Positions 1,796-59,700 of a DNA stretch of 64,000 nucleotides are shown here, piece by piece. The number at the start of each line of letters is the position of its first letter. Positions within the stretch are counted from its first letter, which is position 1. The position numbers and the translations under genes are program-made. The notes below the pieces were generated by a model, which worked only from the letters and a program-made list of their open reading frames with translations, was not told the origin of the DNA and did no database searches. Origin of the DNA: a virus (Duplodnaviria > Caudoviricetes); IMG/VR virus record IMGVR_UViG_3300037067_015039, positions 45,213-109,212 of that record. The stretch is one strand, 5' to 3'.

Positions 1796-3064
1796 TTATT
1801 CCTTATTGATGACTTTATTAAGATGCGTATTCCCAAACGAAAGATACCTCACCGGAATCCCGGGCGCAATTTCCGACAAACCATTTACCACAGAATTTGC
1901 CTGACGAAGCCCATAGGAATAATCCTTATGGTTTACCATAATTTCTTTGCTGATTTCGCGCAATTGTTCGAATGGCCGGCTTCGATAACAATCAGCATAA
2001 ATCCAGCGTTTTTGTTCTTTGAGAATATCCATATGGGTTATGGCCAATTCGTCCACTTTGCCAACAACACTGAGAGCGTATTTGAACGCTGGCACATCGA
2101 AATACCCTCTTCTCAAATCCCCCTGCCACTGATTATTTATGTTATGTTCCGGCTGCACATCAAATCCGTGGACATTCAGATCTTCGCTTTCTGTGACAAA
2201 TGGGCCTGCGCCATGCCTGGTGAAATAGGTTCGAACCACCCCAATGGTTGTTATGTCTAATTTATCGGTCGCCCCATAGTGATTGATAATCTCAAAGGCG
2301 TTATTGAACGTACAATCCGTCCAGGTGACGTGATTCCCAAACCCGTGGGTCTCGTCCAGCAGGACTCCCTGAGCGCCTTCAAAGACAATTGCATTCGGCA
2401 AACTATTCCTGATGTCATAAAACGTGCCAACTTTAATTTGTTGGAGCCAATCTTTGTAGAAATTTCTAACGTCTACCGGAGTTTCATTCTGCATTAGATC
2501 GTAAAGATTTTGGGTTTCTTTGCTATTGATAAATTTCTTGCATTGCCGAAGTTTTGTTTCTTTTATCCATTCCAGTCTTTCAATCGAATGAGGACATGGA
2601 ATATCCGAGACCTCGAGAGATAGCCCATCTAACTGATCTGCCCGGGTTTCCCCAACTCCCATTCCGCAGGATCCGTGTCTATCTTTTCCTCGAGACATTT
2701 CTTTGAGTCTGTTTGCTCTCCAATGCCAGGGAGTGACAATAACACTCTTGGGGTTTATTAGTAGGCGCTCAAGCCCATCATAAACTCCACTATGTTTCAG
2801 TACCACATTCTCAATGAGCATTGAGTAGGGTTCAATAAGCATATATTCCGATAAATAGGTCCGGCACCCGGGGATGAAGGTGCCGGACCCAAATTGAGCA
2901 AAGGTGTGATGGAGTCCGTCAGGCAACACGACGTTATGCCCTGCCTGCGGACCTCCATTATATCGGACTACCCAATTGGCCTTGTGTTCCCGGCAAAGAA
3001 AATCAACCATCGTTCCTTTGCCCTCATCCCCGAAGGCCAAACCTGCGATAATGAATATTTGCAT
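1796..3064 (-). CDS. divergent adenylosuccinate synthetase-family protein (PurA-like, not PurZ)
   Basis: FGDEGKG, RYNGGPQAGH, GSCGMGVG, FEGAQGVLLD and TRHGAGPF motifs; aspartate-binding loop is non-canonical. Confidence 0.9.
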   Translation of the reverse strand: MQIFIIAGLAFGDEGKGTMVDFLCREHKANWVVRYNGGPQAGHNVVLPDGLHHTFAQFGSGTFIPGCRTYLSEYMLIEPYSMLIENVVLKHSGVYDGLERLLINPKSVIVTPWHWRANRLKEMSRGKDRHGSCGMGVGETRADQLDGLSLEVSDIPCPHSIERLEWIKETKLRQCKKFINSKETQNLYDLMQNETPVDVRNFYKDWLQQIKVGTFYDIRNSLPNAIVFEGAQGVLLDETHGFGNHVTWTDCTFNNAFEIINHYGATDKLDITTIGVVRTYFTRHGAGPFVTESEDLNVHGFDVQPEHNINNQWQGDLRRGYFDVPAFKYALSVVGKVDELAITHMDILKEQKRWIYADCYRSRPFEQLREISKEIMVNHKDYSYGLRQANSVVNGLSEIAPGIPVRYLSFGNTHLNKVINKE

Positions 3065-21831: not shown

Positions 21832-21861
21832 TTGACAGTATTTCTCAATTCGTGTTATAAA
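21832..21861 (+). promoter_or_regulatory. sigma70 promoter with extended -10 driving the rightward early-type operon
   Basis: TTGACA-18-TATAAA with TG at the extended position; ATG 7 nt downstream. Confidence 0.65.
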
Positions 21862-21867
21862 AAAGTT

Positions 21868-22116
21868 ATGAGTTCCACCAAATCATCCCGGCTGCAAGGA
21901 ACAATCGAAAGATTAGGATTCAATTGCTACAAGTCTATGGCATGGGAACAGCCCTTTGCTGTCATTGCCCTAGCTAATGGTACGAAGGCTTATTGGTGGT
22001 TTACCGATGAAGAATTATTTAACTCTCTTCGCATCGGTCAGGAAATTACCGCCTTTGTTTATCCCTCTGATTATTATGGACAAACTTGCAGACGTGTTAA
22101 AAGGATAATCCCATGA
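21868..22116 (+). CDS. hypothetical protein (probably leaderless mRNA)
   Basis: ATG sits at the predicted +1; no SD sequence. Confidence 0.55.
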   Translation: MSSTKSSRLQGTIERLGFNCYKSMAWEQPFAVIALANGTKAYWWFTDEELFNSLRIGQEITAFVYPSDYYGQTCRRVKRIIP

Positions 22117-23920: not shown

Positions 23921-24439
23921 ATGAAGGTTTTAGTCGCCACAAAAAAATGTCAGGGAATGCGATTAAATGATTTTTCCTACACTACCGATGGAGAATTAGT
24001 CCGATATGGTTTTGATTGTGACGGAGAAACAATTGACGGTAGTTGCGGGTGTTTGCGCTCATTGATCGGGTTTGATTCCCTGAAAGGCACTACGACATTT
24101 CGAATTGCCGAACAAGATTTAAGTATGCAGAAGATTACCGGATTGATTCGACAATCGCTTATTAAATCGGGGTACATTTCGAAAACTTTAACCAAAGACG
24201 ATAAAGACATTTTATCGATTACTGTCAAAGAAACCTTAAACTTATGGAAATTATTCGATCCTTACCCAATTGGCGCTGTCCTAGAACGTCGTGGAGATTC
24301 CTTTTCTTCTCGTATACCTGAAACTGGCTTGTGTCCCATTTGCGGAGAGAAAATTAAGCTCATAGGGAAAACAGTGGATGGAAGGCCCATTGGATCATGC
24401 CAGGATGCTTTCACCTTTAAGCAATGGCTTGCTGACTGA
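23921..24439 (+). CDS. conserved Cys-containing hypothetical protein
   Basis: MKVLVAT..QG.R.NDF...GELV...DGSCGC.RS..G..S.KGTTT. Confidence 0.7.
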   Translation: MKVLVATKKCQGMRLNDFSYTTDGELVRYGFDCDGETIDGSCGCLRSLIGFDSLKGTTTFRIAEQDLSMQKITGLIRQSLIKSGYISKTLTKDDKDILSITVKETLNLWKLFDPYPIGAVLERRGDSFSSRIPETGLCPICGEKIKLIGKTVDGRPIGSCQDAFTFKQWLAD

Positions 24440-24512
24440 TTCCGGATTTAATCGAGTAAACCGGGTTTACTCGATTATACCTTGAATCACAAGGGGAAAG
24501 AGAGAACCAACA
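24437..24512 (+). repeat. structured intergenic element copy 1
   Basis: tgattc-cggattt-[hairpin]-atac-cttg-aatca-caag-gggaaagagag. Confidence 0.85.
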
Positions 24513-24971
24513 ATGGAAGCGATTACCATTGGAACAGCAATTAAGGAAGTTCAGATAAAATACATTACACGGCAGAAAATAGGAGAAACGCGAAGAATCT
24601 CCAATAGTAGGGAAGTTTTCGAAATATTTTACCCGATCCTCAATGCTGAACGAGTGGAGGTTTTTATTTGCGTTATGCTCACTACAAAAAATCGGGTATT
24701 AGCCTATGAGGTTGTAAGCCGAGGGAGCCTTAATGAATCTGTTGTCCATCCTCGGGAAGTATTTTCGTCTCCGGTAAGATTACAGGCTGCCGCTGTTCTT
24801 TTCCTGCATAATCATCCATCAGGAGATCCGACGCCAAGCCAAGCAGATCAAGATTGTACGCAGAAGTTAATGGCAAGCGCCAAAACCTTGCAGTTTAGAG
24901 TATTAGACCACATTATTATCGGCGAATCTGATTATTACAGTTTTGCCGATGCTGGCAAGATGCCTTCTTAA
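24513..24971 (+). CDS. RadC-like JAB-domain protein
   Basis: E.F, GSLNESVVHPREVF, HNHPSGDPTPSQAD, LDHIIIG. Confidence 0.92.
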   Translation: MEAITIGTAIKEVQIKYITRQKIGETRRISNSREVFEIFYPILNAERVEVFICVMLTTKNRVLAYEVVSRGSLNESVVHPREVFSSPVRLQAAAVLFLHNHPSGDPTPSQADQDCTQKLMASAKTLQFRVLDHIIIGESDYYSFADAGKMPS

Positions 24972-25043
24972 TTCTGGATTTCGTCTGCTAATAATCCCAT
25001 TGGCGGACGATACCTTGAATTAATCAAGGGGAAAGAGAAAACC
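24969..25043 (+). repeat. structured intergenic element copy 2
   Basis: taattc-tggattt-[cgtctgctaat/attggcggacg]-atac-cttga-attaa-tcaag-gggaaagag. Confidence 0.85.
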
Positions 25044-25481
25044 ATGAAAATACTCAAATCTGCTCTCGTGAAGAACATTGAAGCTTTTCGGGCTGACAAG
25101 CTGAAAGAATTAGGAAAAGCGGAGAAGGAAAAAGACCATTACTTAAAGCTTTTAGCCCGGTGGGAAACAGACCGGCGGGATTGTGCTCTTAATCTCATTG
25201 CCAAGAACTCCGAAAAACTATACGTCGATTTCGGGCACGTCTGGCAGGAAAAAGGCATGACAGAAATTACCGTCAAGCTGAAAATTACAACGGCAACAAT
25301 ACCGCTACCATTGCGGAATGAGCTTCGACATCCTACCGATGTAGACAAGCTTTTAGACCAGATTAAATCAGCAGAGGAGCAACTGGCTCTCCTGAAAATG
25401 TGTCCCGAAGAAATGATTGTAATCAATTCAAAGCTTGATCGGGATGCAATACAGCCCTACATCAATTATCAGGCCCATTAA
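25044..25481 (+). CDS. hypothetical protein
   Basis: Bounded exactly by elements 2 and 3. Confidence 0.7.
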   Translation: MKILKSALVKNIEAFRADKLKELGKAEKEKDHYLKLLARWETDRRDCALNLIAKNSEKLYVDFGHVWQEKGMTEITVKLKITTATIPLPLRNELRHPTDVDKLLDQIKSAEEQLALLKMCPEEMIVINSKLDRDAIQPYINYQAH

Positions 25482-25557
25482 TCGGCGATTTCGCAGGCCA
25501 GGCTTTTGCTTGGCCTCCGATACCGCTAATTATGCGGGGAAAGAGAGAACTAACATT
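25479..25557 (+). repeat. structured intergenic element copy 3
   Basis: taatcggcgattt-[hairpin]-atac-cgc-taattat-gcg-gggaaagagag. Confidence 0.85.
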
Positions 25558-26013
25558 ATGGCATTAGTAAATTTAAGGACCAGCGCACGATCAAAAGACC
25601 GGCTTTTCTATTATCGAAATCCTATAGGCCAAACCATCAAGATCGAGGTTTATTATACCAAGGGCGGCACAAGCATATTTACCTCAAGGCAAATATCACG
25701 TGGCGTCTTTGTGTCAATCACTCCGGTAAAAGTGGAGTTATCTGAATCGGGGTTTTCCTCAGAATCATTCCTTGTGTTTTCCGGCGGGAAAGCACTATTG
25801 TGCGAACTCAAACGCTTTAGCCTGAATACCCTTCTGGAAGTGGGCGCTAAAATTGATGCAATCCTACCAAAGGTTGCAGCAAACCTTAGCCATGAAGCGA
25901 CAAATAATGATTTTGCCGCTTCTGCAAAATACATTCGCGATTGCTTCCAAAATCCGGCGCTCATAGAAACCGAACCACCAAAGCCAGAAATAAAGGAGGT
26001 TTTAAATGGATAA
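25558..26013 (+). CDS. hypothetical protein
   Basis: Start moved to MALVNL, directly after element 3. Confidence 0.65.
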   Translation: MALVNLRTSARSKDRLFYYRNPIGQTIKIEVYYTKGGTSIFTSRQISRGVFVSITPVKVELSESGFSSESFLVFSGGKALLCELKRFSLNTLLEVGAKIDAILPKVAANLSHEATNNDFAASAKYIRDCFQNPALIETEPPKPEIKEVLNG

Positions 26014-26569
26014 GGTTAAAAAGGTAAAGCCTCAATTATATTTGAGTTTTATCCTAAGACAGGACAACGATCTTCCACTTCCTGGGCATGGGGATCAGGC
26101 AATAATCATTGTATCGGTGATTTACAATGATTTCGAACATGGCGGAACTCTTTCTGCTCCTAAATGGAAAAATTATTCCTCCCTGGGCGGCAATCGGCAA
26201 TATGAAAACCTCGAATTGAGAGGGTATCTGTCTCAAGATATTGTTGATGCTTATGGTCATACATTGGCTTATTGGGATTTACACGAGGTTATGTCTAAAC
26301 GTGCCGAGATTATGGCCAAAACCCTCAAAATGATCGAAAAGAAATTCAAATCTTATGACAATTTTGAAGGCTATTATGGCAATTTTGGCGCCATGACAAA
26401 CCGCTTATGCCGAGCAATCGGAGCAGAAGGCATGATCGAATGGCAAGCGCCTTTTTGTAATTATGACGATTGCCCTAATATGAAATGGGAAATCGGGCAA
26501 ATCCCTAATATTGTCAATGGTCGGATTGAAGCTTGGCACACTGCACACCCGTTAAAAGAAAACGCATAG
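26006..26569 (+). CDS. hypothetical protein
   Basis: AAGGAGG RBS; stop codon begins element 4. Confidence 0.7.
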   Translation: MDKVKKVKPQLYLSFILRQDNDLPLPGHGDQAIIIVSVIYNDFEHGGTLSAPKWKNYSSLGGNRQYENLELRGYLSQDIVDAYGHTLAYWDLHEVMSKRAEIMAKTLKMIEKKFKSYDNFEGYYGNFGAMTNRLCRAIGAEGMIEWQAPFCNYDDCPNMKWEIGQIPNIVNGRIEAWHTAHPLKENA

Positions 26570-26642
26570 CTTGGATTTCAAGGCATAAGTTTCTGCTTAT
26601 GCCTTGATACCTTAGCTAATGTAAGGGGAAAGAGAGAAATCA
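26567..26642 (+). repeat. structured intergenic element copy 4
   Basis: tagct-tggattt-[caaggcataag/cttatgccttg]-atac-ctta-gctaatg-taag-gggaaagagag. Confidence 0.85.
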
Positions 26643-26840
26643 ATGCCTAGAGTCTTTGACCTCAGCGAAACGGATATTGTACCGCAGCATCATAAACGCA
26701 ATCGGGCGCCAGGAGGCAAAAGTTTCTGCAATGCTGGCAGGCGGCGCTATCCCTGTCCTACGTGCCATAAACCAAACCAACTAACAGAGCTGGATTCCCT
26801 TGAGGGTTTTCAATGCTCTCATTGTTCGAGGAAACAATAA
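26643..26840 (+). CDS. small Zn-ribbon protein
   Basis: YPCPTC..PNQLT..D...GFQC..C. Confidence 0.65.
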   Translation: MPRVFDLSETDIVPQHHKRNRAPGGKSFCNAGRRRYPCPTCHKPNQLTELDSLEGFQCSHCSRKQ

Positions 26841-26842
26841 CC

Positions 26843-27205
26843 ATGAATCTTGACTGGAATAGAGAACCACAAATGGACGCTGGAAAAAAACCGTCAATCG
26901 AAACCAAAGGCTACACAACAAAGGCTCCACACCTTATGACAAAAGAAGAGAGAAATACTCTTTTCGAATGCCTGGAAACGGAATTGCAATTGCAAAAGCT
27001 TCCGACATCCTATGGATTGCCCCGTATTGCCCATGCTGACGAATTTATGATAATGCACACCACAGAAGAGGGAATCATAGGATTCAAGCACATTTGCACC
27101 CGCAACTATGTTTTCCTGATCCCTTCGGAAAGCCAGAACCGGGAATATGACCTTTACGTTCCTGTATCAAAAGAATATTTCATGAGGGGTCAATTCGACG
27201 AATAA
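26843..27205 (+). CDS. hypothetical protein
   Basis: ATG after GAGG; stop codon begins element 5. Confidence 0.6.
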   Translation: MNLDWNREPQMDAGKKPSIETKGYTTKAPHLMTKEERNTLFECLETELQLQKLPTSYGLPRIAHADEFMIMHTTEEGIIGFKHICTRNYVFLIPSESQNREYDLYVPVSKEYFMRGQFDE

Positions 27206-27280
27206 TCGGCGATTTCGCAGGCCAGGCTTTTGCTTGGCCTGCGATACCGCTAATTATGCGGGGAAAGAGAGCAAACCTTT
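27203..27280 (+). repeat. structured intergenic element copy 5 (68/69 nt identical to copy 3)
   Basis: Direct comparison with 25479-25547. Confidence 0.9.
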
Positions 27281-27475
27281 ATGTTAGAAAATATAATCAC
27301 GAAAATTGACGAACAGAATAATCGGCTCATTATCAGCTTGGCCTTGCAGGCTCCGATTGCTTCGGCAAGTGGAAAAACCCTCGTAGTGGCTTCCACTCGC
27401 GGCAACGTGAAAAGCGGAGTTATGATCAATGGCAAAGAAGTAACAATCGGCTGCAATGCCTACATAAAGCCCTAA
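27281..27475 (+). CDS. small conserved hypothetical protein
   Basis: SASGKTLVVASTRGN...IGCNAY. Confidence 0.7.
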   Translation: MLENIITKIDEQNNRLIISLALQAPIASASGKTLVVASTRGNVKSGVMINGKEVTIGCNAYIKP

Positions 27476-27483
27476 TGAACTCC

Positions 27484-27556
27484 TGAAAGGCGATTTCACG
27501 GGCTGCATCCCTTTGTGGCCCGTGATACCGCTTCTTAGCGGGGAAAGAGAGAAACT
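27484..27556 (+). repeat. structured intergenic element copy 6
   Basis: gaaaggcgattt-[cacgggctgca/tgtggcccgtg]-atac-cgct-tctt-agcg-gggaaagagag. Confidence 0.85.
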
Positions 27557-27814
27557 ATGAGCAAACCAAAAAACGATAAACCAGCATTCGATAATCCAGT
27601 AATCCGGCAGGCATTCAAGAATCTCGTAAATCAAGCAGTGCATCATCAATGCAAAGTTTGGAATACGATCGGAGAAATTGAGGGATTGTTTGGTAAAGAC
27701 ATCAACAATCTCGATGAACTGGTCGTTGACCTTGCAGCAGCTATCGATGACGGTTTGACTGATGACAGCCAGACGCAACTATTTTTTAATCGCCTGAAAT
27801 TCACGGAGGACTAA
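27557..27814 (+). CDS. hypothetical protein
   Basis: Follows element 6. Confidence 0.65.
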   Translation: MSKPKNDKPAFDNPVIRQAFKNLVNQAVHHQCKVWNTIGEIEGLFGKDINNLDELVVDLAAAIDDGLTDDSQTQLFFNRLKFTED

Positions 27815-27818
27815 CCCA

Positions 27819-28724
27819 ATGATGCAAACCTTAACTGACTGGCAGCCGGAAAGAATACCAATAAGCCACCAATTGCCTTCCATGCCGCACGAAGGATGCT
27901 GTCAAATACCGCAAGAATGTGAATCGGGATGGGAACAATTGCCCCGTGCGGAGGAACCTGAGACTGTAGAAAAACTGAAAATCGACAAATCCGAATGTCT
28001 CATTAAAAAAAAGGGCATACTGGCTTATTTCAAAGGGAACGATAAAACCGGCTATATCTGCTATCCGCCATGGATGAAATTATTCGAACCCTATGATCCA
28101 CCGAAATGCCCGGCGCCGCCGATCGATAAGAAGGTGGAAACTACCATCGAGAGGCTAACCAAAAATATTCAGAAGGCTTACGCCAAGTTACTCCCGGAAA
28201 GCCATAATCACAGGCAATGCGATAATTTTATTGGCTCCAGAACGAAAGATTACGAATATGAATGTGTCGCAACTGACACGCATAGAGCTTTACTTGTGCG
28301 GCAAAAGAAGGTCAAGAAAACCGTCAATGGGGTTTGCGTCTGGAGTCTATGGAACGTCAATGAAGTTCCAAATCTTGACGCCCCATCGCTAACCCTGGAG
28401 GATCCTGGCATTTTCCTTGCAATTAAACGCCTTTCAACAATTCTGGAAGATGATAAGTATTTCTTTATTGCTTTGACCTGGAACCATAAGTCAGGCCAAT
28501 TAATTATTTCTGCCGAAAACTCATTTAAGGAAGAAGGGATTGAATCATTTGCCTGTAAAGCTACTTATTCCGGCAGGATTGCGTTAGATCCTCGGTATGT
28601 TCTTCCTGCACTCGGAACCTGGCCATTAGTCATGTATCAGGAAGGGAAAGATAGACCGGCTGTCTTTATGCCGGACACAAAGAAACGTGAATTTATGTAC
28701 GTGCTCATGCCAATGAAACAATAA
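27819..28724 (+). CDS. protein with partial DNA sliding-clamp (DnaN beta)-like C-terminal region
   Basis: VATDTHRA, IALDPRYVLPAL and terminal YVLMPMK resemble beta-clamp motifs. Confidence 0.55.
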   Translation: MMQTLTDWQPERIPISHQLPSMPHEGCCQIPQECESGWEQLPRAEEPETVEKLKIDKSECLIKKKGILAYFKGNDKTGYICYPPWMKLFEPYDPPKCPAPPIDKKVETTIERLTKNIQKAYAKLLPESHNHRQCDNFIGSRTKDYEYECVATDTHRALLVRQKKVKKTVNGVCVWSLWNVNEVPNLDAPSLTLEDPGIFLAIKRLSTILEDDKYFFIALTWNHKSGQLIISAENSFKEEGIESFACKATYSGRIALDPRYVLPALGTWPLVMYQEGKDRPAVFMPDTKKREFMYVLMPMKQ

Positions 28725-28801
28725 GAATCGAGGTCTTGCCGTGTAAACCCGGTTTACATGGCTGGACTCCGCTTCTTAGCGGAGAAAGCAGGCAAACGCT
28801 T
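28722..28801 (+). repeat. structured intergenic element copy 7 (divergent)
   Basis: taagaa...[gccgtgtaaacc/ggtttacatggc]...ccgct-tctt-agcgg-agaaag. Confidence 0.7.
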
Positions 28802-30125: not shown

Positions 30126-30713
30126 ATGAGCCACCTATTTCTCGATGAAGCAAAAATCCATATCCTCCTGGAGTCTGCTAAAGAGAATCTTCGGGACTAT
30201 GCGCTGCTCCACATGGCGGCAAGCACAGCTTTGCGAGGATCCGACCTTCTCAGAATCACTCTCGAAGACATGGTGGATAGAAACGGCGAAATCATCCGGT
30301 TGCTCCGGTTAAAAATGAAGAAGACCGCCCAATGGATCGAACGGCCGCTTCGGGATGACTGCCGGCAAGCTGTTTATACCTGGATCAATAGCCGAAGAGA
30401 CAAAAACCCTTATCTCTTCATTTGCCTTGGGAATGAAGGGAAGAAAAGAAGAACACCATTATCCAGGATGGGGTACGATAAAATTATTAAAAAATATCTG
30501 TCAATGCAGTATCACGAATCCGTCTTGCAGGGATGTTCCACTCATACCCTGCGGAGATCCGTGGCGAAGCTGGTCTATAAGAAGACCGGCGAAATTGCGG
30601 CGGCTCAATCGCTCCTTGGACACAGTTCTCCTATCAATACCATCAAATATATCGATCCAAGTGAGATTAGAGAAAAAGCGAATAAAGTGGTTTTGGAAGA
30701 TCTGAAATGGTGA
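30126..30713 (+). CDS. tyrosine recombinase, catalytic domain only
   Basis: ALRGSDLL (R), KKT (K), HTLRR (HxxR), LLGH and TIKY (Y). Confidence 0.92.
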   Translation: MSHLFLDEAKIHILLESAKENLRDYALLHMAASTALRGSDLLRITLEDMVDRNGEIIRLLRLKMKKTAQWIERPLRDDCRQAVYTWINSRRDKNPYLFICLGNEGKKRRTPLSRMGYDKIIKKYLSMQYHESVLQGCSTHTLRRSVAKLVYKKTGEIAAAQSLLGHSSPINTIKYIDPSEIREKANKVVLEDLKW

Positions 30714-30718
30714 AATCC

Positions 30719-30747
30719 TTGCAATTTCAAAAGACAGGTTTTATATT
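30719..30747 (+). promoter_or_regulatory. sigma70-like promoter for the tRNA-like gene
   Basis: TTGCAA-17-TATATT; predicted +1 near 30754. Confidence 0.6.
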
Positions 30748-30753
30748 ATCGTT

Positions 30754-30821
30754 TGCGGGTGATCTGAGATCAATTGAGACTCATAATCTCGAAAAGCAGG
30801 GTTTGATTCCCTGACCCGCCA
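30754..30821 (+). tRNA. tRNA(CAT) (Met/Ile2/fMet-like) with reduced D arm
   Basis: Acceptor gcgggt/acccgc; anticodon arm tgaga-ctCATaa-tctcg; T arm caggg-tttgatt-ccctg; D arm gatc-tga-gatc. Confidence 0.7.
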
Positions 30822-30916
30822 TTGAGACTCTTGACACATTAATCAATATCCGGTTAGAATCATTTTGCTTGGTTTCTCTCGGGGGGTTCGCTTGATCGGG
30901 GCAGCCCCCCATTCCT

Positions 30917-35510: not shown

Positions 35511-36085
35511 TTGCCGATGGGCACGATCGCCAATATAGCGGAATAACCACCTTGCTTTACAAGGACCCTTTGTTCGTCTTTGCTAAAGCAGTGAATATGG
35601 GGATTAAAGCTCTTCTCACTAAAGATGTCATTCTTGTCAACGATGACTGCCAGGTAATTCAGCCGGATTTCTTCCGAAAACTTGCCACTTATGCGGCTTT
35701 CCACCCGGATATTGGCATACTCAGCTCTTTAATTAGAGGGAAAGTCGGTAACGATCTTCAAAGATGGACCCCAAAAACACGTGAATGCCTCTTTGAATAT
35801 GAGAATGCCATTGGGATCTGCTTCCCATGCGTCTTCCTTCGTCGCAAAATGATTAACCAGATTGGCCTTTTAAACGAGGGGTTTGTCGATTATGGCGGTG
35901 AAGATACTGAATACTGCACTCGCGCCCGGGCGGCCGGCTGGAGAACTGCGGTTGTGACAAATCTTGTCATCCAACACGGAGACGACGCATCCCCTCTATC
36001 GCCATCTTTCAATAAGCGCTGGTGGCGCCGAGGAAAACCAACCGATCAGGAGATCGAACTCTATTTCATGCGTAATAAGTTGTAA
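35408..36085 (+). CDS. GT2-family glycosyltransferase
   Basis: FAKAVNMGI...LVNDD...IGLLNEGF..YGGEDTEYC.RA. Confidence 0.85.
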   Translation: MYGIVIPNRYSEIIKPLITSIDELIPRPLPVTFLIADGHDRQYSGITTLLYKDPLFVFAKAVNMGIKALLTKDVILVNDDCQVIQPDFFRKLATYAAFHPDIGILSSLIRGKVGNDLQRWTPKTRECLFEYENAIGICFPCVFLRRKMINQIGLLNEGFVDYGGEDTEYCTRARAAGWRTAVVTNLVIQHGDDASPLSPSFNKRWWRRGKPTDQEIELYFMRNKL

Positions 36086-36252
36086 ACCGGGTTTACTTTT
36101 TACAACTTATTACATCCAACTTTCACTTTTTTTACTCTCGTGTAATGCCCCAGGATCAACGAACTCCCCTTATGAGCTATCTCGGTATCCATTAAAACAA
36201 GATAATTAGGCAGATCTGGCATCCGCAAGCGCCATTGGATGTTTTAATTATG

Positions 36253-47431: not shown

Positions 47432-47758
47432 TTACAGTGGTTCGACTGGTTCGGTCTGAACTGGATTATCGACATCTGAAATCTGAGAGGCTACTTGCGC
47501 CAACGATGCCACTCGAACTTTCAGAGCGTTCATCGCCTCAAGTACTTCCGCTGGAGTCTCAGTGCTCTGAGCTTTAATTCTTTCGATATCGGCCTGAATT
47601 TCGGTCAGCTCCGTTCCGATGGTGTCCAAACCGGCGTTTACTGTGGTTTTAAATTCATTAAAATCTTCCGTTAATCCCATAAGGCGCTCCTTAATTTCGT
47701 TAATTTCAGAAGATATTTTACCAGAAAATATCTCAATAAGATTCTTAAAAAATTTCAT
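47432..47758 (-). CDS. coiled-coil hypothetical protein
   Basis: Last gene of the lysis block. Confidence 0.6.
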   Translation of the reverse strand: MKFFKNLIEIFSGKISSEINEIKERLMGLTEDFNEFKTTVNAGLDTIGTELTEIQADIERIKAQSTETPAEVLEAMNALKVRVASLAQVASQISDVDNPVQTEPVEPL

Positions 47759-47798
47759 ATTTCAATCCACGCTCCCAGATAGGGAGGCGATATAAAAT

Positions 47799-50732: not shown

Positions 50733-53700
50733 TTAGTCTTCTGGAGGTTCCGGAAGACTTCCGCTTGTATCATCAGGTGGAGACTGCAATCCAATAGATT
50801 CCTCTTTATACTTTCTAATGCCTAACTTTTTGAGGGACTTTTGAGCTGTTGCAAGCATTCTCATATAAGCATTGTCAATCCTCCTTCTTTTTTCATCAGC
50901 GCTATATTTCGGGTCTTGAATTACCCTATGGATTTCACGGTTGATGCTTTTAAATCTTTCCGTGGCATACCTTAATTCATCATACATCTTACGTTCTTGT
51001 GGGGTAAATGGAGGAAGATCAAATCGGTTTCCCTCCTTCCTGGATTGCTTCCTACTTCTATATTTGAGATTGATATCTGTCCACAAGTCATAAACCTTAG
51101 ATATGCTTCGCAGACTGGCATGAGGGAAACGAACTGCGATTGAACGGATCAAAGGCACATCTGCCAACTGAGTCGTTGGCAAGGTCTTACCCTTTGGAGG
51201 CGAAATAAGGTTAGTCGCCGGATCAAGGATTACTTTTGTAGCCAACCTGGCGGAGCCGCCAAAAGTTGAAAACATGGCATGCTCAATCTTTACAGGGCTG
51301 ACATGAATGCCCATTTTGGCCATTAACAACGCCGTTTGATTAGCGAATTCGCTCGTATACCAGTTTGATCGATACTCCGGCAGATAATTTTTCTGCATCC
51401 AATCACTTTCAATTTCCCGATTGGTAAAGAAATTTTTGTTATACATTAATTCAAACGGAGTTTTAGCGATCGTTGGTACGATCCCCGGCGTAATGTTTGA
51501 AATCAAATTCTTAATGAAATTATCAAAAGCAGTCGGATCCTTGGTATCTATATATTCCGCCAGCCGCTCTGCCGGGGTTGCATAAAACATTCCCCAACTG
51601 AATGGTTTTGGAACTGGTATCCATGGAGTAGCCTGACTCAATCCCGGGATCCCCTTTGTCGGAAATAACCAGAAAAGATCTCTAAGCCACCAAGGAGCTT
51701 CGCGGTATCTTTCGTCATCCTTATTTAGATAATAAACTAAAATTGATATTGCTTGGAAAATAGCGCCTTTAAGCAACGCTCCTTTAGGGTTGAACTTGTG
51801 GACTCGCACAAATTTGTCCACATCTTGAATAGATGCATTAAAAAATGGGATTGTGAGATTGAATCCTCTAGCCCAGGCACCGATCCTTTGAAAATCCAGT
51901 GTCCCTTCACGAGATGCGAGGCCAGCTTCACGGATGGAGCCGCCACGTTTTCTTGTTTGGGTATAAATAGAGACTCGAGTCATAGCCTCAGATATTTCGC
52001 TCAAGATTCTCAATGCGTCTATTGGATGCCGAAGCGCATATTCCATCTTCCCGGACATAAGATCGCGCAATGCCATACTCATTTCTTTGCGATCCATAGA
52101 AGCCATAGCAGAATGAGGGCCACCAGACCTCATCCATTCCTGGTAATCTTTGTCCTTCATTATCACATGCCCAAGCCCTTGCAGCGTGTGATAGCCAGGG
52201 ATATATCCAATATTGGTTTGAGCCCATGCGGTGAGCATATCTCGGGCAATATTTCGGGAAGCAAATTCCGGGTTGATTCCAGTAGCGCCCATTCTGAGGA
52301 CTGATGCGGGGATAGCAGCAATTTTCATAAGGATCCCGATGGAATCTTTATCCAGTCCCTTTATAGCATTATAAAGATTTGGTTCAAGCTGGTATAAAAT
52401 CGGTTTCCCTTTGAAATACACCGTTATGATATTCTCTTTAGGGGAAGGAATAGCATTAGGGACAAATATCGTTGCAAGCTGGTCCAGATTAAGATTTGGG
52501 TCCGAAAGATCAACTCCCGCAGCAGAAAGCGCATTTTTGATTCTATCCAAGGCGAATGTCTCAGGAATAACTTTTGCCGCCAATGGTCCGGAAACCCATC
52601 TCCCGGAGCCATCCTCCTTAGTCAAATTCGCTAATGCCTGTCCTACCAAATTACGTTCGGCCACATTGATAAGCGTGTAGGTGTTTTTAATGATCGATTC
52701 CAACGGATCTATAATTGGCCGCCAGGACCCCTTCATTTTCTTTACCGGCTGCCATAAATCCACCATGCTTGATCCGGCCTTAGCTCTGCTTTCTGTGGTT
52801 TTCTCCCCGGCACCAGCCTCATACATCCTATGGAATGGTACAAAAAACTGGTTAAGGAGTTTGATGCTGATATATTGATCCACCGAGAGCATTCCGCAAT
52901 CCCGGAAATAAATCAAAAGCTGGTCCTGATATTTATAAAGTTGCAGCAGTGTGTCTTTGGTTATCTGTGCCTCTGGAGTTGCCGCCTTTAACGAATTAAC
53001 ATCAAAGGCCGGCACGGATGGATGGCCGAGCATAGTTGGAGTTGAACCCACAGTGAGCGTACTCAGATCGAATCCTTGCTCTTGTAAGGATTCCTTGGCC
53101 TCCTGAACTGTTATTCCAACCTCAATGCCTTGCAGTCCCTTCTTTTCTAAGGTTCTCAGGGCAATAGCAGTAATACGCAGATCATCTAACCTATCCTTCA
53201 TTGGTTCAAGAATCTGTTTTAGTCCTGGGCCAAGAAGGGTATCAAGATTTTTACCGAAAGTCCCCACCTGGAGGAAATGCTCTGCCCTGGCAGCCCAACC
53301 GCTTAAAGCTTGGGCAAGTTTGCCAGGATCGTCTTCCATTGGGATCTTCCGGCCCTTGGTTATAATCTTCACAGCTTCATTGATTGGATTAAGATGATTG
53401 ACCATCCCCGTATAAATTTTTTCGAACCATCCCATTTGATCATATACTGGCTCTTCTACCGAAATATGGGACAGAATTTTCGCTGAACTCGTTTGATCCA
53501 GCCAGCGTTTATAATCTCGTTGAGCTTCCTTTAGGATTCCCGCGAGATCGGGATTTCGAGCCAATTCACCTTCAAACATCAAATTCACGCCGGGGCATAG
53601 TTGCGCCGCTTGCGCGGGATCCGTAATCCAATACCGGATATATTCGGCAAAGCCTTCCGGGAGTTTAGATTGTCCAGCGTAAGCCTTAGTGGCAATTGCC

Positions 53701-56700
53701 TCAAGTTCCACTCTATGAGGGGCCAACGGCCGCCAATTTAGTTGTTTCCCGTGTATTCCCCACAGGATCTTATTAATAGCATGGCCAACTTCATGGGCTG
53801 CAACAGCAACATCCTGAGCTTTTTTAATTCGAATTGCTGTTGCATTTATTTTAAAAATTCCCAAAGCTCTTTGTCGGAATCTTCCATATCTGATTGGGAC
53901 TTTGAGCTTTTTAGCCAAATTGATAAGAATGTCATTTCTCCTCACTAAATCCTTTTTATTTATAACAGGAGGAGGAGCGTAATTTGGTGCGCCGGATGTT
54001 TGAGGAGGAGCCGGCAGGACTGGAGCGCCCGGAGAACTCGCCATTGCCGACGTAGGTTCTTCTTCTGGTTGGGGAATTTCTTCGCCCTCTTGACTACGCT
54101 TTAAATCATCCATCATCTCTTCGACATAAGGGAAATAATGGATTGCTTCCGCCTGGGCCTGGGTATTATCAAAATCGACTTCGCTACTTACGTGATCAGA
54201 CACTTCTTGCCCAACCTTGTCGACATAAATTCTTTCATTCAACCAGTCGGTATTGTCTTGAGTTTTGATCCAATTGAGCAAATGTTTTGCTATGACAGGA
54301 TTTTGATGAACAATCATTTGATCGTCCAAAGTTCCTTGACCATTCAGAATTCTATCAATAGACTCTTGAGCTTGCTTGAGCCAGAATTCTGCCGCTTGTC
54401 TCGCCTGTTCTATAGACTGAGGAACGTCACCGCGGCCGACTTCCATAGATCTGGACCCATCTGCTTCGACATTGAGACCTATTGACATAGCGCTTGTCGG
54501 GCCTCCACCACCTGGCGCAGAAGGAGTCCCGGTTGGGATAACTCTTACAGGTTTATTCCGTTCGAAGATTTTATCGAGAAGTTTAGGGCCTTCCACATCA
54601 TCTAATGGGACGAAGACTCTAGGGCGTCTTGATTCTCCTCCTACAATGATTTCTGTAATTGCGCCCTGATCTTTCAACGTCTTAACCGCGGCTTCGCGGT
54701 ATGCACGTGAAAGATTGATTTCCATCCGGCGTTCACCATGGATAGGGGGCGTCATTTGGATACGCCAATTATTATCCAGTTCGATAGTTGCGCCATCCCT
54801 AACCATCGTGAATATTGAAAGCCCTGACTCTTTAGTAAAATCGTTGCCCATACCAAGCCGGGATTTAAGAGGTCCAATCTCGTTTGTCTTTACCTGGATG
54901 CCAATTACCGGAGAACCATCAGCCAAAACCGCTCGAACAATTTTTAGATTATGGAGTTGTCCGTCCCCTATAATTTTGTCATGAATTGGGAAGACTGCTC
55001 CAGTAACCATATAAACCGGGCGCCGGGTGGTCTCCGGGATTTCTGCAAATTCCTTTTCCCATAAATCCTTTGCCTGCTCTAAGGCTGTTATGGGAGGTCC
55101 GGGAAGTCTTTCAGGCGTCGCAGCCTTATCTGAAGGCGTACCTTTGACAATTTTATAATTCTCATTGAATTCTTTAACTTCAATTCTATTTTTTGTGAAT
55201 CGAACAGTCCGGAGGTCGATTTTTCGATTTCCAGTCAGAGGATCAACATAATTATATGCGGCCGATATTTTCCCGCTCCTCTTATTGGTTACAAAACCAA
55301 TAAGATCTGCACTTCGAGGGATATTATCCCATTTAAGCTTTTCGGTTTTAAAATCCCCTTCCATCTCAAGGAATTTTGTTTCCATATGAGTGTTGGGATC
55401 TTTGTAAATAACCTCTTCTTTTGTGATGACAATATTGCTTCCACGAATTTTTGAAATTCCGGTATCAAAAGTACCTTGCTCCTTCGCAACTGCGAGATAA
55501 GCCTGATAACGACCATAGAAGTTATTAAACACATCGTTTTGGACGTCGACAGGAAGAACCATTATGCGATTCAGAAATCCTTCAACATTGGTGTCGACGT
55601 TGGGCTTCAATGATTTGTTAGGAGTCAGCCAGCCCATGGCATCTAAAACATCCACACCACTGCCATAATCGCCTTTTACTTCATAATTGTTATGCGCCAG
55701 ATCATGGACGAGTGACATCAGTGCGGTACGCCCATAACCATCTGTGAGATCCTCAATATCGAACAGACTTCCACCAAGCGATTCCCGGTTGCCCTGCGTC
55801 ACAGCGCCTAAACTGGCCAGCCGGCGCGAAACTGCATTAATCAATCTCTGCTGACCAGCCACGTTGGTTTTAACCAACATGATTATTGGAGGAGTAACCT
55901 GGTTCGATCTGTGAGCGCGACCAAAGAACTGCATTTGCTGATCGGCCGACCAGGATAATTGAGCGCAATACATAATTCGGCGTTTATTTGCAGTCGGTAT
56001 CCCTTTTTCAGCTTGAGCCGATATACCAGCACTGCCGGCTCCTGTGATGATCAAGACATCAGCTTCTCCGTTTTGGAACCGGCGCAGTTCTGCATTATTG
56101 ATGGTTTCCCCGGGTTTCTTCCCGGCTGGTTTGCGGCGTACCAGTTTATTGCCTTCAATTCGTTCAGTTCGCCCAGAAACTTCCGCAACTTTTCCCCATC
56201 CGCCAAGATGGTTCGCAATCATATCCATAGGATTATCCGGAAGATTCAGATATTCGAGTTCATTCAAAAGCTCTTCCTGCATCCGGAGATTTTCTTGGTT
56301 TATTTCTCCGGTAGCAATCTGAATTGTGGATTGTGGGTTGTCCGGATCCGGGACATCTTCCATCTCCTCGAGGGGAAACCAGTTTTCGATATAAGATTTA
56401 ATCATCTGCCTTGGGCCAATATCGATATCTTCTATACTCTTACCGGCCGCCTCAGCTTTTGCGACTTCCTTCTTCATCAGAGTTTCATTCGTGCTGAGGA
56501 TATTGATGATCGGCGCCATGCCGTTTTTAAGAGATTCATCCAAATGAGTCAAAACAGACTGCATCTGGTAGGTCGTCATCAGCATAAGGAAAAATCTTTG
56601 TTGGGTGCTATAGAACTGGGAATAGCGCGTTCCCCCGCGCTTTTGGTTCGCATTGCCCTCGGCTATTTCCATCTGCTTTATCAATTTAGACCACATGCTG

Positions 56701-59700
56701 GCAGATTTATTGTATTGCTCAAGCTGATATTCATTGAGGTCATGATTTACATAATCGTAATTCACGCCTCGATAACTGATCTGCCGGCTTATGAATGCTC
56801 CAAGTGATTTAAGATCTCGAGAGAGCATTTCCATAGCTCCCAATCCACCAGTGTTCATGGCATTCATAAAAGCGTCAAAATCTGCGAAAGCTGTTCCTTC
56901 CCCCCATAATCCAAGCCGATTCATATATCCCATGTTATGGGCGAGAGTAGCTCCGGTAGCGCTCACATAAAGTATCTTGGCCTTTGGAAATTGTCTGGCA
57001 AGCAGCAGCCCCATCTCACCGCGGTCGGTGCCAGTGGCACTTGTCGAAGCTCCGCCCTGATTAGTTCCCACGGCGTTTTTCATTGCGTGGCAATTGGATA
57101 CTAATATTCCATCGGCAAAGTAGTTGTGATTGTCTGCAACTTCGAGGTCATAAACGATTCGATCTTGTGCGCTACGAGACTGCAATCGGTCAATATCTCC
57201 TGATTCCAAAATCTCAATACTGACCACCCTAGATATTCCAAAATCTCCGTTTTCCTGTGATCGAGATACTTCCATCTGCAAAATCTTGCTCGTTGCCTTT
57301 GCTTCAATCCTTTCACATTGCGTTGAAACTGGATCCCGCACCAAACGCAAATCCGCAGAGGATTCATCTGTGCATAATAATTCCTTCGACAATTCATGCT
57401 GCAAAAACGAAGGCGGCTGATTCTCTTGCCGCGCTTTTTTATTTTCGGGTTGCCACAATAAAAACATACCGGGGCTAAGTTCTCCGGCAAGGACATATTT
57501 TCTATCTTTTTGATTCCAGATTTTATGATTTGGGGTGCAAGTGAAACTTCCATATTCATGAGTAATTTTAACGAGAGAACTATTGATAGTCCGTGGCAAC
57601 CATCGTAATACTGGCTTCCATTCATACCGATTGCATTCTTTATTATATGACAAAACCTTAACTGCTAGTTGTTTTTCTACAATTTCTCCTATTGGTATTT
57701 CACCACGATCGGTTTTAATCAGTGTTTCATATGTGAAACATTCATCAAAAACTATAACTCCATCAAATTCTTTAGCTTCGGCAGGCTGCAACCAATCAAT
57801 AATCTGATTAAATCGTTCCCGTTTGCTCTTCCAGTTACTTGCGGCTGTGCCATATTGGGTGAAGAGAATTCCTTCTGTGCTATCGATTGGAGCGCCCTTA
57901 GCAAATTTGGATTCATTCTGGTGGATAACGGATAGAGGGACGCCTACACCACCAATGTCTCTCTTGGCATCCTCATATAATTGCTGAGTAGCCGAAATCC
58001 AGACAGCTTTCTTCTGTCCGGTTTCCCGGAGATAGTGATAAATAATTCCAGCTATTTCTCTTCCTTTCCCGACTCCGGTTCCATCACCAATCCAGAAACC
58101 AGCCGTGTCTCCATTTGGCAAAGTGGTCCCAAGTCGCTGAACGGCATATGTAATAGTTTCTAATTGGGCATCACTTAATCTTCCGTCTGAGATCACTTCC
58201 GGAGGCAAGTTTATTTTTACCTTAATATCTGGCGATTCCACGCTTCCGAGAGTTGCGCTTTCAATAAGTTCTGCCGGGTGAGGCTTAGATCCTTTGTATA
58301 CAGCTTTCTTGGGTTTGTACTTTACATAAGCGTCTGTTTCTTCTTCTCCGAGTGCTTTGTCTTGTGCATCTAAAGCTACCTCGATGGGAGCCATGTCCCC
58401 CGGGCCTCCAGAAGTAGGAGCACCAGGTCTTCCGCCCAATCCGGGAGTAGTTTCAGGTTCTCCGGCATCGGTAGGTTTTCTTTCAATATCAATTGGTGGA
58501 GGTCCCGGGAGACTCCCACCGGGTCCTCGCTCCCCGCTTTCAGGAACGTGTCCCAATTCACCGGGTCTAGACTCATCCCCTGATGGTACGCCAGGCCGCC
58601 CTCCGGTAACGCCAGGGCTTCCACTACCAGTTCCAGTAGTGGGTTCTGCCGGTCCAATGACTGGCCCCTCAATCGGTGGAGGAGCTTTAATGCTTTCGAT
58701 TGGGCTTGGTCTAGTGATTCTTCCATAGATATCCTCGCCTGCGATAACACTCAACTTTTCTAAAGCTTCCGCTGGAGAAAGCTGATGAGCTATCAAAACT
58801 TTTGAGCTTCTTTCTGCCCCTGTGTCTCCAGGAGTAGGACCAGTCTTGTCTATGACTATCATGCGATTGTCATAGGTGGTTCCCATCTTCTGATAGTATT
58901 GACCCTTCAATCCAAGATCCGCCCGGACGTTGTAATGAGCTTGTACCTGATTCCACCATCTGTTGAATTTTGATCTGTGATGCCCCATCCCTTCGCCAAC
59001 AATAGCCACAAGCCGGCCGCCTGGCGCAAGCTTTTGCAGGGCATTCATTACGTGCCGGGCGCCAAACTCCATGCCGTGTAGCTTCCCTGGGCCGGCAGAG
59101 AATGGAGGATTCATGAGAATTACATCAGGAGTGTAATCCGATAAGGATGTCCCTGTCGTCGTCAGATGCAATGCATCGACAGTGCTTGTTGGGAAACCCC
59201 GGAGCTTCAGAACAGTGACCCTTCTTTCGTCTATTTCGTTCGCTCTTACCTGGTATCCGCGAATTCGCATCATTGTGGCTAACATACCAGTGCCAGCACT
59301 CGGTTCTAGAGCCGTAAGAGGAGAACTTGGATTCCCCAAAGCATAAGCAGTCAAGAAAGCCTGCATAGGAGGAGTTGAGAATTGCTGAAGTTCAATCTGT
59401 TCGGTGGTGCGATCGGACTGAACCGCAAGGCGTCCCTGGAGTTCTTCCAACCGGGCCATAGTCGCAATTGGATCGTTAAAATCAACCATCCCGCTTTCTT
59501 CTATGTATTCTGATACGGCGCCCTCGAAGACGTCATACATATCTCGAAGCGTGTATTTCCCCTGTCCACGGGCGCCGCCGAAGGATTCATTCGCCATAGC
59601 CTGCAGCATCGGATTATTAAACTTCGCTCCATTAACCAAAGCGGCTTTAATTTTAGAAAGAAGATCTCTGAATTGTTGATCCCTGGTTATTTCTTCAGGC

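Follow-up and report, generated by a model that had tools for sequence, protein, structure and literature searches.

The early messenger RNA (mRNA) of bacteriophage T7 carries five signals for ribonuclease III (RNase III), named R0.3, R0.5, R1, R1.1 and R1.3, and cleavage at such signals has been proven in T7. When the T7 regions were folded here, with the cut positions of Dunn and Studier 1983, R0.5, R1, R1.1 and R1.3 formed hairpins, with two tiers at R0.5 and R1; R0.5, R1 and R1.3 lie in gaps of 62-80 nucleotides (nt), and the stop codon of gene 0.4 falls inside the lower stem of R0.5. We compared these signals with a repeated structured element found between the early genes of an uncultured phage (Duplodnaviria; Caudoviricetes; IMG/VR record IMGVR_UViG_3300037067_015039). 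The stretch analysed, referred to as the window, comprises 64,000 nucleotides and represents bases 45,213-109,212 of the 109,212-base-pair (bp) viral record, which was rated complete by CheckV and is called G000 in comparisons with relatives. Overall, we give a probability of roughly 50% to the reading, drawn by analogy, that the element is a T7-type host RNase III processing signal on an early polycistronic mRNA.

The element occurs in G000 as six canonical copies (type I) and one divergent copy (type II). Each fills the 66-81-nt gap from a stop codon to the next AUG between two co-oriented genes. The copies, in window positions, are as follows.

24437-24512, + strand: copy 1, type I, from folding and the covariance model; it precedes the RadC-like gene (AUG 24513)
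24480-24494, + strand: alternative hairpin Y:Z of copy 1 (CCUUG with CAAGG, 5 bp), from folding
24969-25043, + strand: copy 2, type I; stop UAA at 24969-24971 within the lower stem; alternative hairpin at 25013-25029 (6 bp)
25479-25557, + strand: copy 3, type I; stop UAA opens the lower stem; alternative hairpin at 25523-25537
26567-26642, + strand: copy 4, type I; stop UAG opens the lower stem; alternative hairpin at 26610-26626
27203-27280, + strand: copy 5, type I; stop UAA opens the lower stem; alternative hairpin at 27247-27261
27476-27556, + strand: copy 6, type I; lower stem from about 27483; alternative hairpin at 27528-27541
28722-28801, + strand: copy 7, type II, divergent, placed by eye and by folding; alternative hairpin at 28769-28782

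Seven copies had been reported in an earlier note made from the sequence alone; all lie at the starts given there, and motif, pattern and model searches placed the element nowhere else in G000. Reading and folding also bore out the layout that it described, with the elements running in the order lower-stem strand a, GG or GGCG, AUU, a variable hairpin of 11-13 bp, UAC, a second hairpin, a purine box and, 5-10 nt after the box, the AUG. In the long fold, the lower stem a:a' at the base has 4-7 bp and is followed upward by a 1x1 mismatch, by 2-4 bp in which GG pairs with CU or GGCG with CGCU, by a 3x3 internal loop and by the upper hairpin of 11-13 bp; the loop, AUU against UAC, can also be read as A.C, U:A and U.U, which yields the fixed U-U and A-C mismatches of the earlier note. 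In copy 1, the lower stem at 24437-24442 opens with the stop codon UGA and pairs with 24484-24489, GG at 24444-24445 pairs with 24481-24482, AUU (24446-24448) faces UAC (24478-24480), and the upper hairpin (24449-24477) has the palindrome GTAAACCNGGTTTAC as its tip. In the alternative fold, a segment Y together with the start of a' pairs with the following segment Z to give a hairpin of 4-6 bp, the last two G of which begin the purine box. Long stem and Y:Z of copy 1 thus share 24480-24489, and the final two G of Y:Z open the purine box at 24493-24503.

The stop codon had been described as usually lying in segment a, and in six of the seven copies it forms the opening triplet of the lower stem; the exception is copy 6, whose stop UAA (27473-27475) is 8 nt before the lower stem and hence outside it. 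The first hairpin indeed differs between most copies, except for copies 3 and 5, which are identical over about 69 nt but for one base, with copy 3 carrying one C.C mismatch in its upper stem. Copy 7 departs furthest from the canonical form: its stem is nearly continuous over 24 bp, three 1x1 mismatches (U.C, A.C and U.U) replace the 3x3 loop, the stop UAA opens the stem, the tip is again the GTAAACCNGGTTTAC palindrome and the box reads GGAGAAAGCAGG.

The constituent motifs proved to be largely confined to the array. The purine box GGGGAAAGAGA is found exactly six times on the + strand, always inside a copy, and with up to one mismatch it has seven matches compared to 2.3 expected, a number that none of 100 shuffles reached. 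The string GATTT-N-GATACC is present in five copies (copy 1 has TATACC instead), and the five matches of the full composite pattern in the 109,212-bp genome all fall in this array. As the earlier note had suggested, a covariance model was built from the six canonical copies (R1) and motif scans of viral and metagenome sequences were run; in the genome, R1 matched only this array and two reverse-strand echoes of the palindromic copies 3 and 5, without picking up copy 7, and the scans yielded three relatives, described below. The 15-bp palindrome GTAAACCNGGTTTAC is more widely distributed, with eight exact occurrences in the 109-kb genome where far below one is expected.

Window 1168, 21729, 24456, 28743 and 36082: exact occurrences of GTAAACCNGGTTTAC; three more lie upstream of the window
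Window 4919 and 43227: GTAAACCNGGTTTAC with one mismatch

It forms the tip of the upper hairpin in the first and last elements and in their orthologues in two sister genomes (G001 and G002), and further occurrences are at the operon terminator and, near the candidate early promoter, some 100 bp upstream of it. The palindrome is probably a docking site of a phage DNA-binding protein that was reused as a hairpin tip.

Both folds are kept by covariation. In a structure-fitted alignment of the copies (A2), which was fitted to the model, leans towards its structure and includes two reverse-strand rows, 91.7% of the long-stem cells were paired, compared to 64% in shuffles and 28-42% with slid partners, and 17 of the 22 long-stem pairs change on both sides. 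An alignment made with MAFFT misplaced the 3' block. Orthologous copies, which are independent of A2, differ by changes that are compensatory or compatible with wobble pairing: compared with copy 2, the G001 orthologue has C:G for U:A and U:A for U:G; the orthologue of copy 4 has G:C for A:U and A:U for G:C; three substitutions distinguish copy 6 from its orthologue, each altering one side of a pair and leaving the pairing intact; and the a:a' strands read UAAU:AUUA in copy 5 and UAAG:CUUA in the G002 orthologue. For the alternative hairpin, pairs 1-5 were scored in 29 distinct sequences anchored at both ends, of which 142 of 145 cells were paired, whereas 10,000 shuffles averaged 103 and peaked at 123, all short of the observed value; the stem occurs in no fewer than seven different sequences. 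The complementarities between segment a and the loop listed in the earlier note were all correct, and covariation at each of the three levels that it had named is upheld by these figures. Since both the long stem and Y:Z are kept in this way, the sequences argue that both folds are under selection.

As had been expected from recurring wobble pairs, the structure favors the + strand mRNA. Read on the + strand, 45 of 395 pairs are G:U (19 copies from three genomes), and in 13 of the 19 copies folding is more stable for the + strand RNA than for the - strand, which together point to an element that acts as + strand RNA. The long stem and Y:Z are mutually exclusive because they use the same nucleotides, and under constrained folding the two states differ by -7 to +5 kcal/mol. 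The choice between a pseudoknotted RNA and a two-state switch, which the earlier note had left open, is thereby shifted to the latter: the shared nucleotides and near-equal energies suit a two-state RNA, while on geometric grounds a pseudoknot appears sterically unlikely, as only 0-4 nt lie between a' and Z, too short to span a helix of 4-7 bp, and pairs 5-6 of Y:Z use a' itself. The further idea that the second hairpin hides part of the ribosome site was not borne out. Pairing takes in no more of the purine box than its first two G, both folds leave the ribosome site open, and the region from -18 to +3 has a mean unpaired probability of 0.61 in the seven genes preceded by an element, compared to 0.53 in eleven neighbors without one. 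A switch would therefore not work by masking the ribosome site.

These observations bear directly on the main rival reading, a ribosome-actuated coupling switch, in which a ribosome arriving at the stop codon would unzip the lower stem, Y:Z would form and the ribosome would re-initiate nearby without any cleavage, the two compact hairpins bringing the terminating ribosome next to the following ribosome site. Such a switch would make sense of a stop codon that opens the lower stem in six of the seven copies here and in most relatives' copies, and of the near-isoenergetic folds. It would also suit the purine box, which is a weaker ribosome site than the AGGAG type that prevails in this genome and might thus depend on upstream ribosomes. 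We nevertheless consider it unlikely: with a ribosome site that is unpaired in both folds and no less accessible than that of element-free genes, there is nothing to unmask; elsewhere the phage achieves coupling by letting the stop and start codons of neighboring genes overlap, for which a 75-nt device is unnecessary; the constant two-tier length of the upper hairpin is left unexplained; and copy 6 and its orthologues have their stop codon outside the stem.

Relatives were recovered by several routes. Scans of viral contigs and metagenome contigs with the canonical motif found only two sister genomes, G001 (109,283 bp) and G002 (106,946 bp, with direct terminal repeats), and protein searches with a 301-amino-acid neighbor of the array returned the same two genomes and fragments. 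A later scan with the type II motif added the more distant G004 (110,207 bp). Counted with R1 and by eye, there are six copies in G001, six and one plain hairpin in G002 and at least 14 in G004, giving about 33 copies over the four genomes, all in the early small-gene array of genomes of 107-110 kb. In the relatives, too, most copies have the stop codon at the start of the lower stem, and orthologues of copy 6 share its outlying stop. Many of the relatives' copies are of type II, as is copy 7: 1x1 mismatches flanking a conserved CG:CG step take the place of the 3x3 loop, and the stem is almost continuous; in G002, a single bulge can stand in for the loop, and at the position of copy 4 this genome has a plain GC-rich hairpin instead of an element. 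Judged from these sequences, the family conserves the helix, the Y:Z hairpin and the purine box, and the sequence of the loop is not conserved. One element of G004 (L137 9662-9861) has the long stem and Y:Z, lacks the purine box and has no gene after it; it is followed by a strongly structured spacer of about 130 nt before the next ribosome site. So far, the family is limited to four uncultured phage genomes of about 107-110 kb. In searches for cultured relatives, neither the DNA nor the 301-amino-acid protein gave a match, and for the DnaB protein the best matches, in P1-like phages and Cronobacter phage JK004, stay below 40% identity.

The exchange of the loop also weighs on two of the roles listed in the earlier note, namely a self-cleaving ribozyme and a binding site for a specific phage or host protein acting in antitermination or translational repression. 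The conserved nucleotides in and around the internal loop of type I copies and the invariant purine box would be expected of either, but type II, G002 and G004 copies have other nucleotides in place of the loop and still keep the helix, the element consists of one helix without a junction, and an 11-mer comparison with the rest of the genome found no complementary partner for the variable hairpins. Rfam contributed no candidate, as the earlier note had anticipated: at the gathering score, tRNAs were all that it reported for the window region, the remainder of the genome and the arrays of the relatives, with no ribozyme or other matching family, and matches at E values up to 10 in the region were at chance level. 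A ribozyme or specific protein site is accordingly extremely unlikely in our view, and among the roles listed, an RNase III-type site gives the best anatomical fit. A trans-acting guide RNA or ribozyme was likewise rejected, given the missing 11-mer partners and the absence of an anti-box sequence in any plausible transcript.

The plain hairpin of G002 has a different bearing, as it is what would be expected if the elements were stability and insulation hairpins that are never cut by RNase III, or signals for a single-strand nuclease such as RNase E or RNase Y. The long hairpin would then act as a barrier that shields decay intermediates from 3' exonucleases and as an insulator that frees the ribosome site, which is always open, and cuts would fall in the AU-rich strand exposed in the alternative fold. 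RNase E prefers a U two positions after the cut, and the G-A-U-U-U of the type I 5' strand, which is single-stranded in the alternative fold, resembles this preference. Type II copies have no AUUU string, though, and a barrier hairpin needs neither about 25 bp nor a mismatch pair at a fixed height; moreover, a duplex of this length is expected to attract RNase III (PMC3867540). We regard this explanation as distinctly improbable.

Under the RNase III reading, the RNA would first fold during transcription into the long interrupted hairpin, whose roughly two-turn duplex would be a substrate of the host enzyme, as are the five signals of the T7 early transcript. A cut at or near the A.C and U.U mismatches in the 3' strand would leave the upstream message ending in the stable upper hairpin, at which 3' exonucleases would be blocked, and would release the 3' strand of the lower stem, allowing the 4-6-bp Y:Z hairpin to snap together. 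The first C in Y is also the one in the A.C mismatch, and the monophosphorylated 5' end left by the cut would thus be buried at the base of Y:Z, directly ahead of the purine-rich ribosome site and the AUG. Separately stable messages of one or two genes with a standard 5' leader would result, and the conservation of both folds would be explained by the long fold serving as substrate and the small hairpin as product. Cutting by RNase III, the position of the cut and protection of the 5' end by the small hairpin are steps that we infer by analogy.

The anatomy of the copies is consistent with such a signal in length, interruption and position. A T7-type duplex of about two turns (~22 bp) is matched by a helix height of 24-27 nt per strand in most of 28 copies (median 24.5; automatic measurements for copies F1, F2, F8 and d7 were mis-parsed and disregarded), of which about 14 nt separate the apical loop from Y and about 10 nt separate Y from the base. 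In structure, mid-duplex mismatches are present as the conserved non-canonical A.C and U.U pairs, at a distance of about 13-17 nt from the apical loop and about 10 nt from the base. The copies are intercistronic, in gaps of the size given above. For comparison, the idealised substrate of Escherichia coli RNase III is 22 bp, loops or mismatches at the target site favor single-strand cleavage that leaves a stabilising 3' hairpin, and an unstructured 5'-monophosphate end produced by RNase III triggers decay by RNase E (PMC3867540), while a hairpin at or near the 5' end protects the downstream mRNA (PMC3997798). No element is present where the stop and start codons of a gene pair overlap or abut, which argues that the elements separate translation units rather than couple them; together with the plain hairpin of G002, these element-free pairs fit a unit separator better than a coupling device.

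Several points weigh against RNase III processing. There is no sequence homology to the T7 signals, the likeness being one of design only. Given the near-equal predicted energies, the long duplex may not dominate in vivo, and for several copies the small hairpin is already present in the predicted minimum-energy fold. Cutting could also be prevented by a terminating ribosome, which would melt the lower stem. The model requires neither a conserved purine box nor a constant placement of the stop codon, and we found no literature precedent for a covarying post-cleavage 5' hairpin at an RNase III site. A search for a phage-encoded RNase III or double-stranded RNA-binding domain found none.

A variant would turn the interference by ribosomes into the purpose of the element. 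Ribosomes terminating at the stop codon at the stem base would hold the RNA in the small-hairpin form, uncut by RNase III, and once upstream translation ceased, the long duplex would form and be cut. In such a bistable device, translation of gene n would decide on processing, so that gene n+1 would either stay linked or be released as a stabilised message. We think this improbable, and to our knowledge no ribosome-gated RNase III switch repeated along an operon has been described.

The RNase III reading presupposes a common transcript, and the copies do sit within one apparent operon. Small genes, mostly without assigned function, occupy the + strand from about 21.9 to 36.1 kb of the window, and the products recognised in this block are a DUF7715 protein, a RadC-like JAB protein (a Pfam RadC match for the gene after copy 1), methyltransferases and glycosyltransferases. 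Its presumed ends are the following.

21832-21861, + strand: candidate sigma-70-type promoter (TTGACA, 18 nt, TATAAA), inferred by reading the sequence
36082-36101, + strand: palindrome hairpin followed by a T run at the end of the + strand block, read from the sequence

The candidate promoter precedes the first gene of the block (AUG 21868), and its sequence is identical in the relative G001; a strict promoter scan does not list the site. A candidate -10 box (window 21856-21870) ends 6 nt ahead of the AUG of the first operon gene, which may be translated from a leaderless or nearly leaderless mRNA. The hairpin at the downstream end is likely the operon terminator. Within the elements, neither promoter-like nor terminator-like sites were found (none of 16 terminator-like sites falls in an element), and a function as intrinsic terminator was rejected, the hairpins being followed by AUAC or CCGC and not by a U tract. 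A T7-type RNA polymerase was searched for and none was found, in a search without a positive control.

Elsewhere in the window, a 4191-amino-acid polyvalent protein is encoded at 50733-63308 (- strand), combining a Strawberry-notch-type helicase split by an intein with methyltransferase, GGDEF and LPD38 domains. These domains ruled it out as a virion RNA polymerase using hairpin promoters. At 47758-47790 (- strand), a solitary sequence resembling a type I-C CRISPR repeat consists of a hairpin followed by GUGGAUUGAAAU and abuts the AUG of a small gene; it is possibly an RNA anti-CRISPR, and its use as a lead to the host gave one uninformative match. An adenylosuccinate-synthetase-like gene is located at 1796-3064 (- strand).

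Comparison of the arrays further revealed that genes have been gained or lost next to the elements. A 145-amino-acid gene (25044-25481) and copy 3 are present only in G000 and have no match in the arrays of G001 and G002, two small genes and a type II element are present only in G001, and a 133-amino-acid gene between two elements is present only in G002.

Window 25044-25557: cassette-like gain or loss bordering elements
L056 6961-7496: cassette-like gain or loss bordering elements
L057 4396-4872: cassette-like gain or loss bordering elements

In the same neighborhood, a 195-amino-acid tyrosine recombinase (window 30126-30713, + strand) is encoded in all four genomes with 57-93% identity, 1.3 kb downstream of the array in the window. 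A tRNA-Met(CAT) gene follows it in three relatives, while ARAGORN found no tRNA at the corresponding place in the window (30714-30830).

Such borders raise the alternative that the elements are DNA-level recombination sites, at which cassettes are exchanged by homologous recombination between the conserved blocks of the repeats, as has been suggested for the PeSL motifs of T4-type phages, or by a site-specific recombinase, as with attC-like sites. Besides the gains and losses themselves, the gene after the last element differs between G000 and both sister genomes, the near-identity of copies 3 and 5 is suggestive, the recombinase lies within 1.3-2.5 kb downstream of the array in all four genomes, and PeSL repeats provide a precedent (PMC2839356, PMC4122927). 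Set against this, three features belong to mRNA: the position of the covarying Y:Z directly at the ribosome site, the bias towards G:U pairs and the stop codon embedded in the stem. In addition, no core of the GTTRRRY type was seen in the copies, and the recombinase, paired with the tRNA-Met gene in three relatives and not adjacent to the array, fits an integration or resolution module. We therefore consider recombination sites very unlikely, and with mRNA-level features and a recombinase that is not tied to the array, shuffling is likely a side effect of the repeats and not what they were selected for.

Should the RNase III reading be true, the element would be a natural module of about 75 nt with three jobs, providing a protective 3' hairpin, a cut, and a 5' hairpin with a standard ribosome site. 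It would present a clear and testable example of an RNA that refolds once cut by RNase III, with both folds selected in evolution, and it would explain how a string of unrelated accessory genes, which are probably anti-defence genes (the RadC-like one, for example), could be expressed uniformly from a single promoter. The elements would also offer ready-made insulator parts for synthetic operons. In addition, the repeats mark the borders of gains and losses among the relatives and may help the accessory region to shuffle.

Among known systems, the leader hairpin of E. coli rncO, like similar targets in 5' untranslated regions, is also cut by RNase III, and the fate of the mRNA is set by the new 5' end (PMC3867540); at rncO this end is unstructured and the message is destroyed, whereas here the new end would be base-paired, with the opposite outcome. 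Like the PeSL of T4-type phages (PMC2839356, PMC4122927), the elements are repeated composite motifs that flank small accessory genes and mark the borders of gain and loss; a PeSL, however, consists of an early promoter and a terminator-like stem-loop, and here neither lies within the elements and structure is conserved at the RNA level. With integron attC sites they share variable structured hairpins with unpaired positions, promoterless small genes in the same orientation and a tyrosine recombinase nearby. Unlike attC sites, they show no R'/R'' core (RYYYAAC / GTTRRRY), their structure favors the sense RNA strand and is tied to a ribosome site, and the recombinase is small, downstream and accompanied by a tRNA gene in relatives. 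Engineered cistron insulators give each cistron a standardised 5' leader by placing a short hairpin, and then a ribosome site, behind a cleavage site; these are synthetic and rely on a ribozyme or on Csy4 (Cas6-family), while the present element is natural and the presumed nuclease is RNase III.

T7 provides the closest parallel, with several hairpins per operon in the gaps between early genes, which are transcribed by the host polymerase in T7, and with a stop codon in the lower stem at R0.5. A covariance model of the five T7 sites (R2) matched only the T7 sites at E values up to 10, with no match in the window or the relatives, and the likeness is one of analogous design, not of homology. 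T7 conserves the sequence of the upper stem, whereas here the upper stem varies and the interruption and 3' flank are conserved. The T7 folds have no downstream hairpin that shares nucleotides with the lower stem, as Y:Z does here, and cleavage, which is proven in T7, is predicted here from the fold. Intercistronic hairpins of the T7 type are thus already known, and what appears unusual in this phage, as read from its sequence and those of its relatives, is the covarying second fold at the presumed cut together with the uniform leader.

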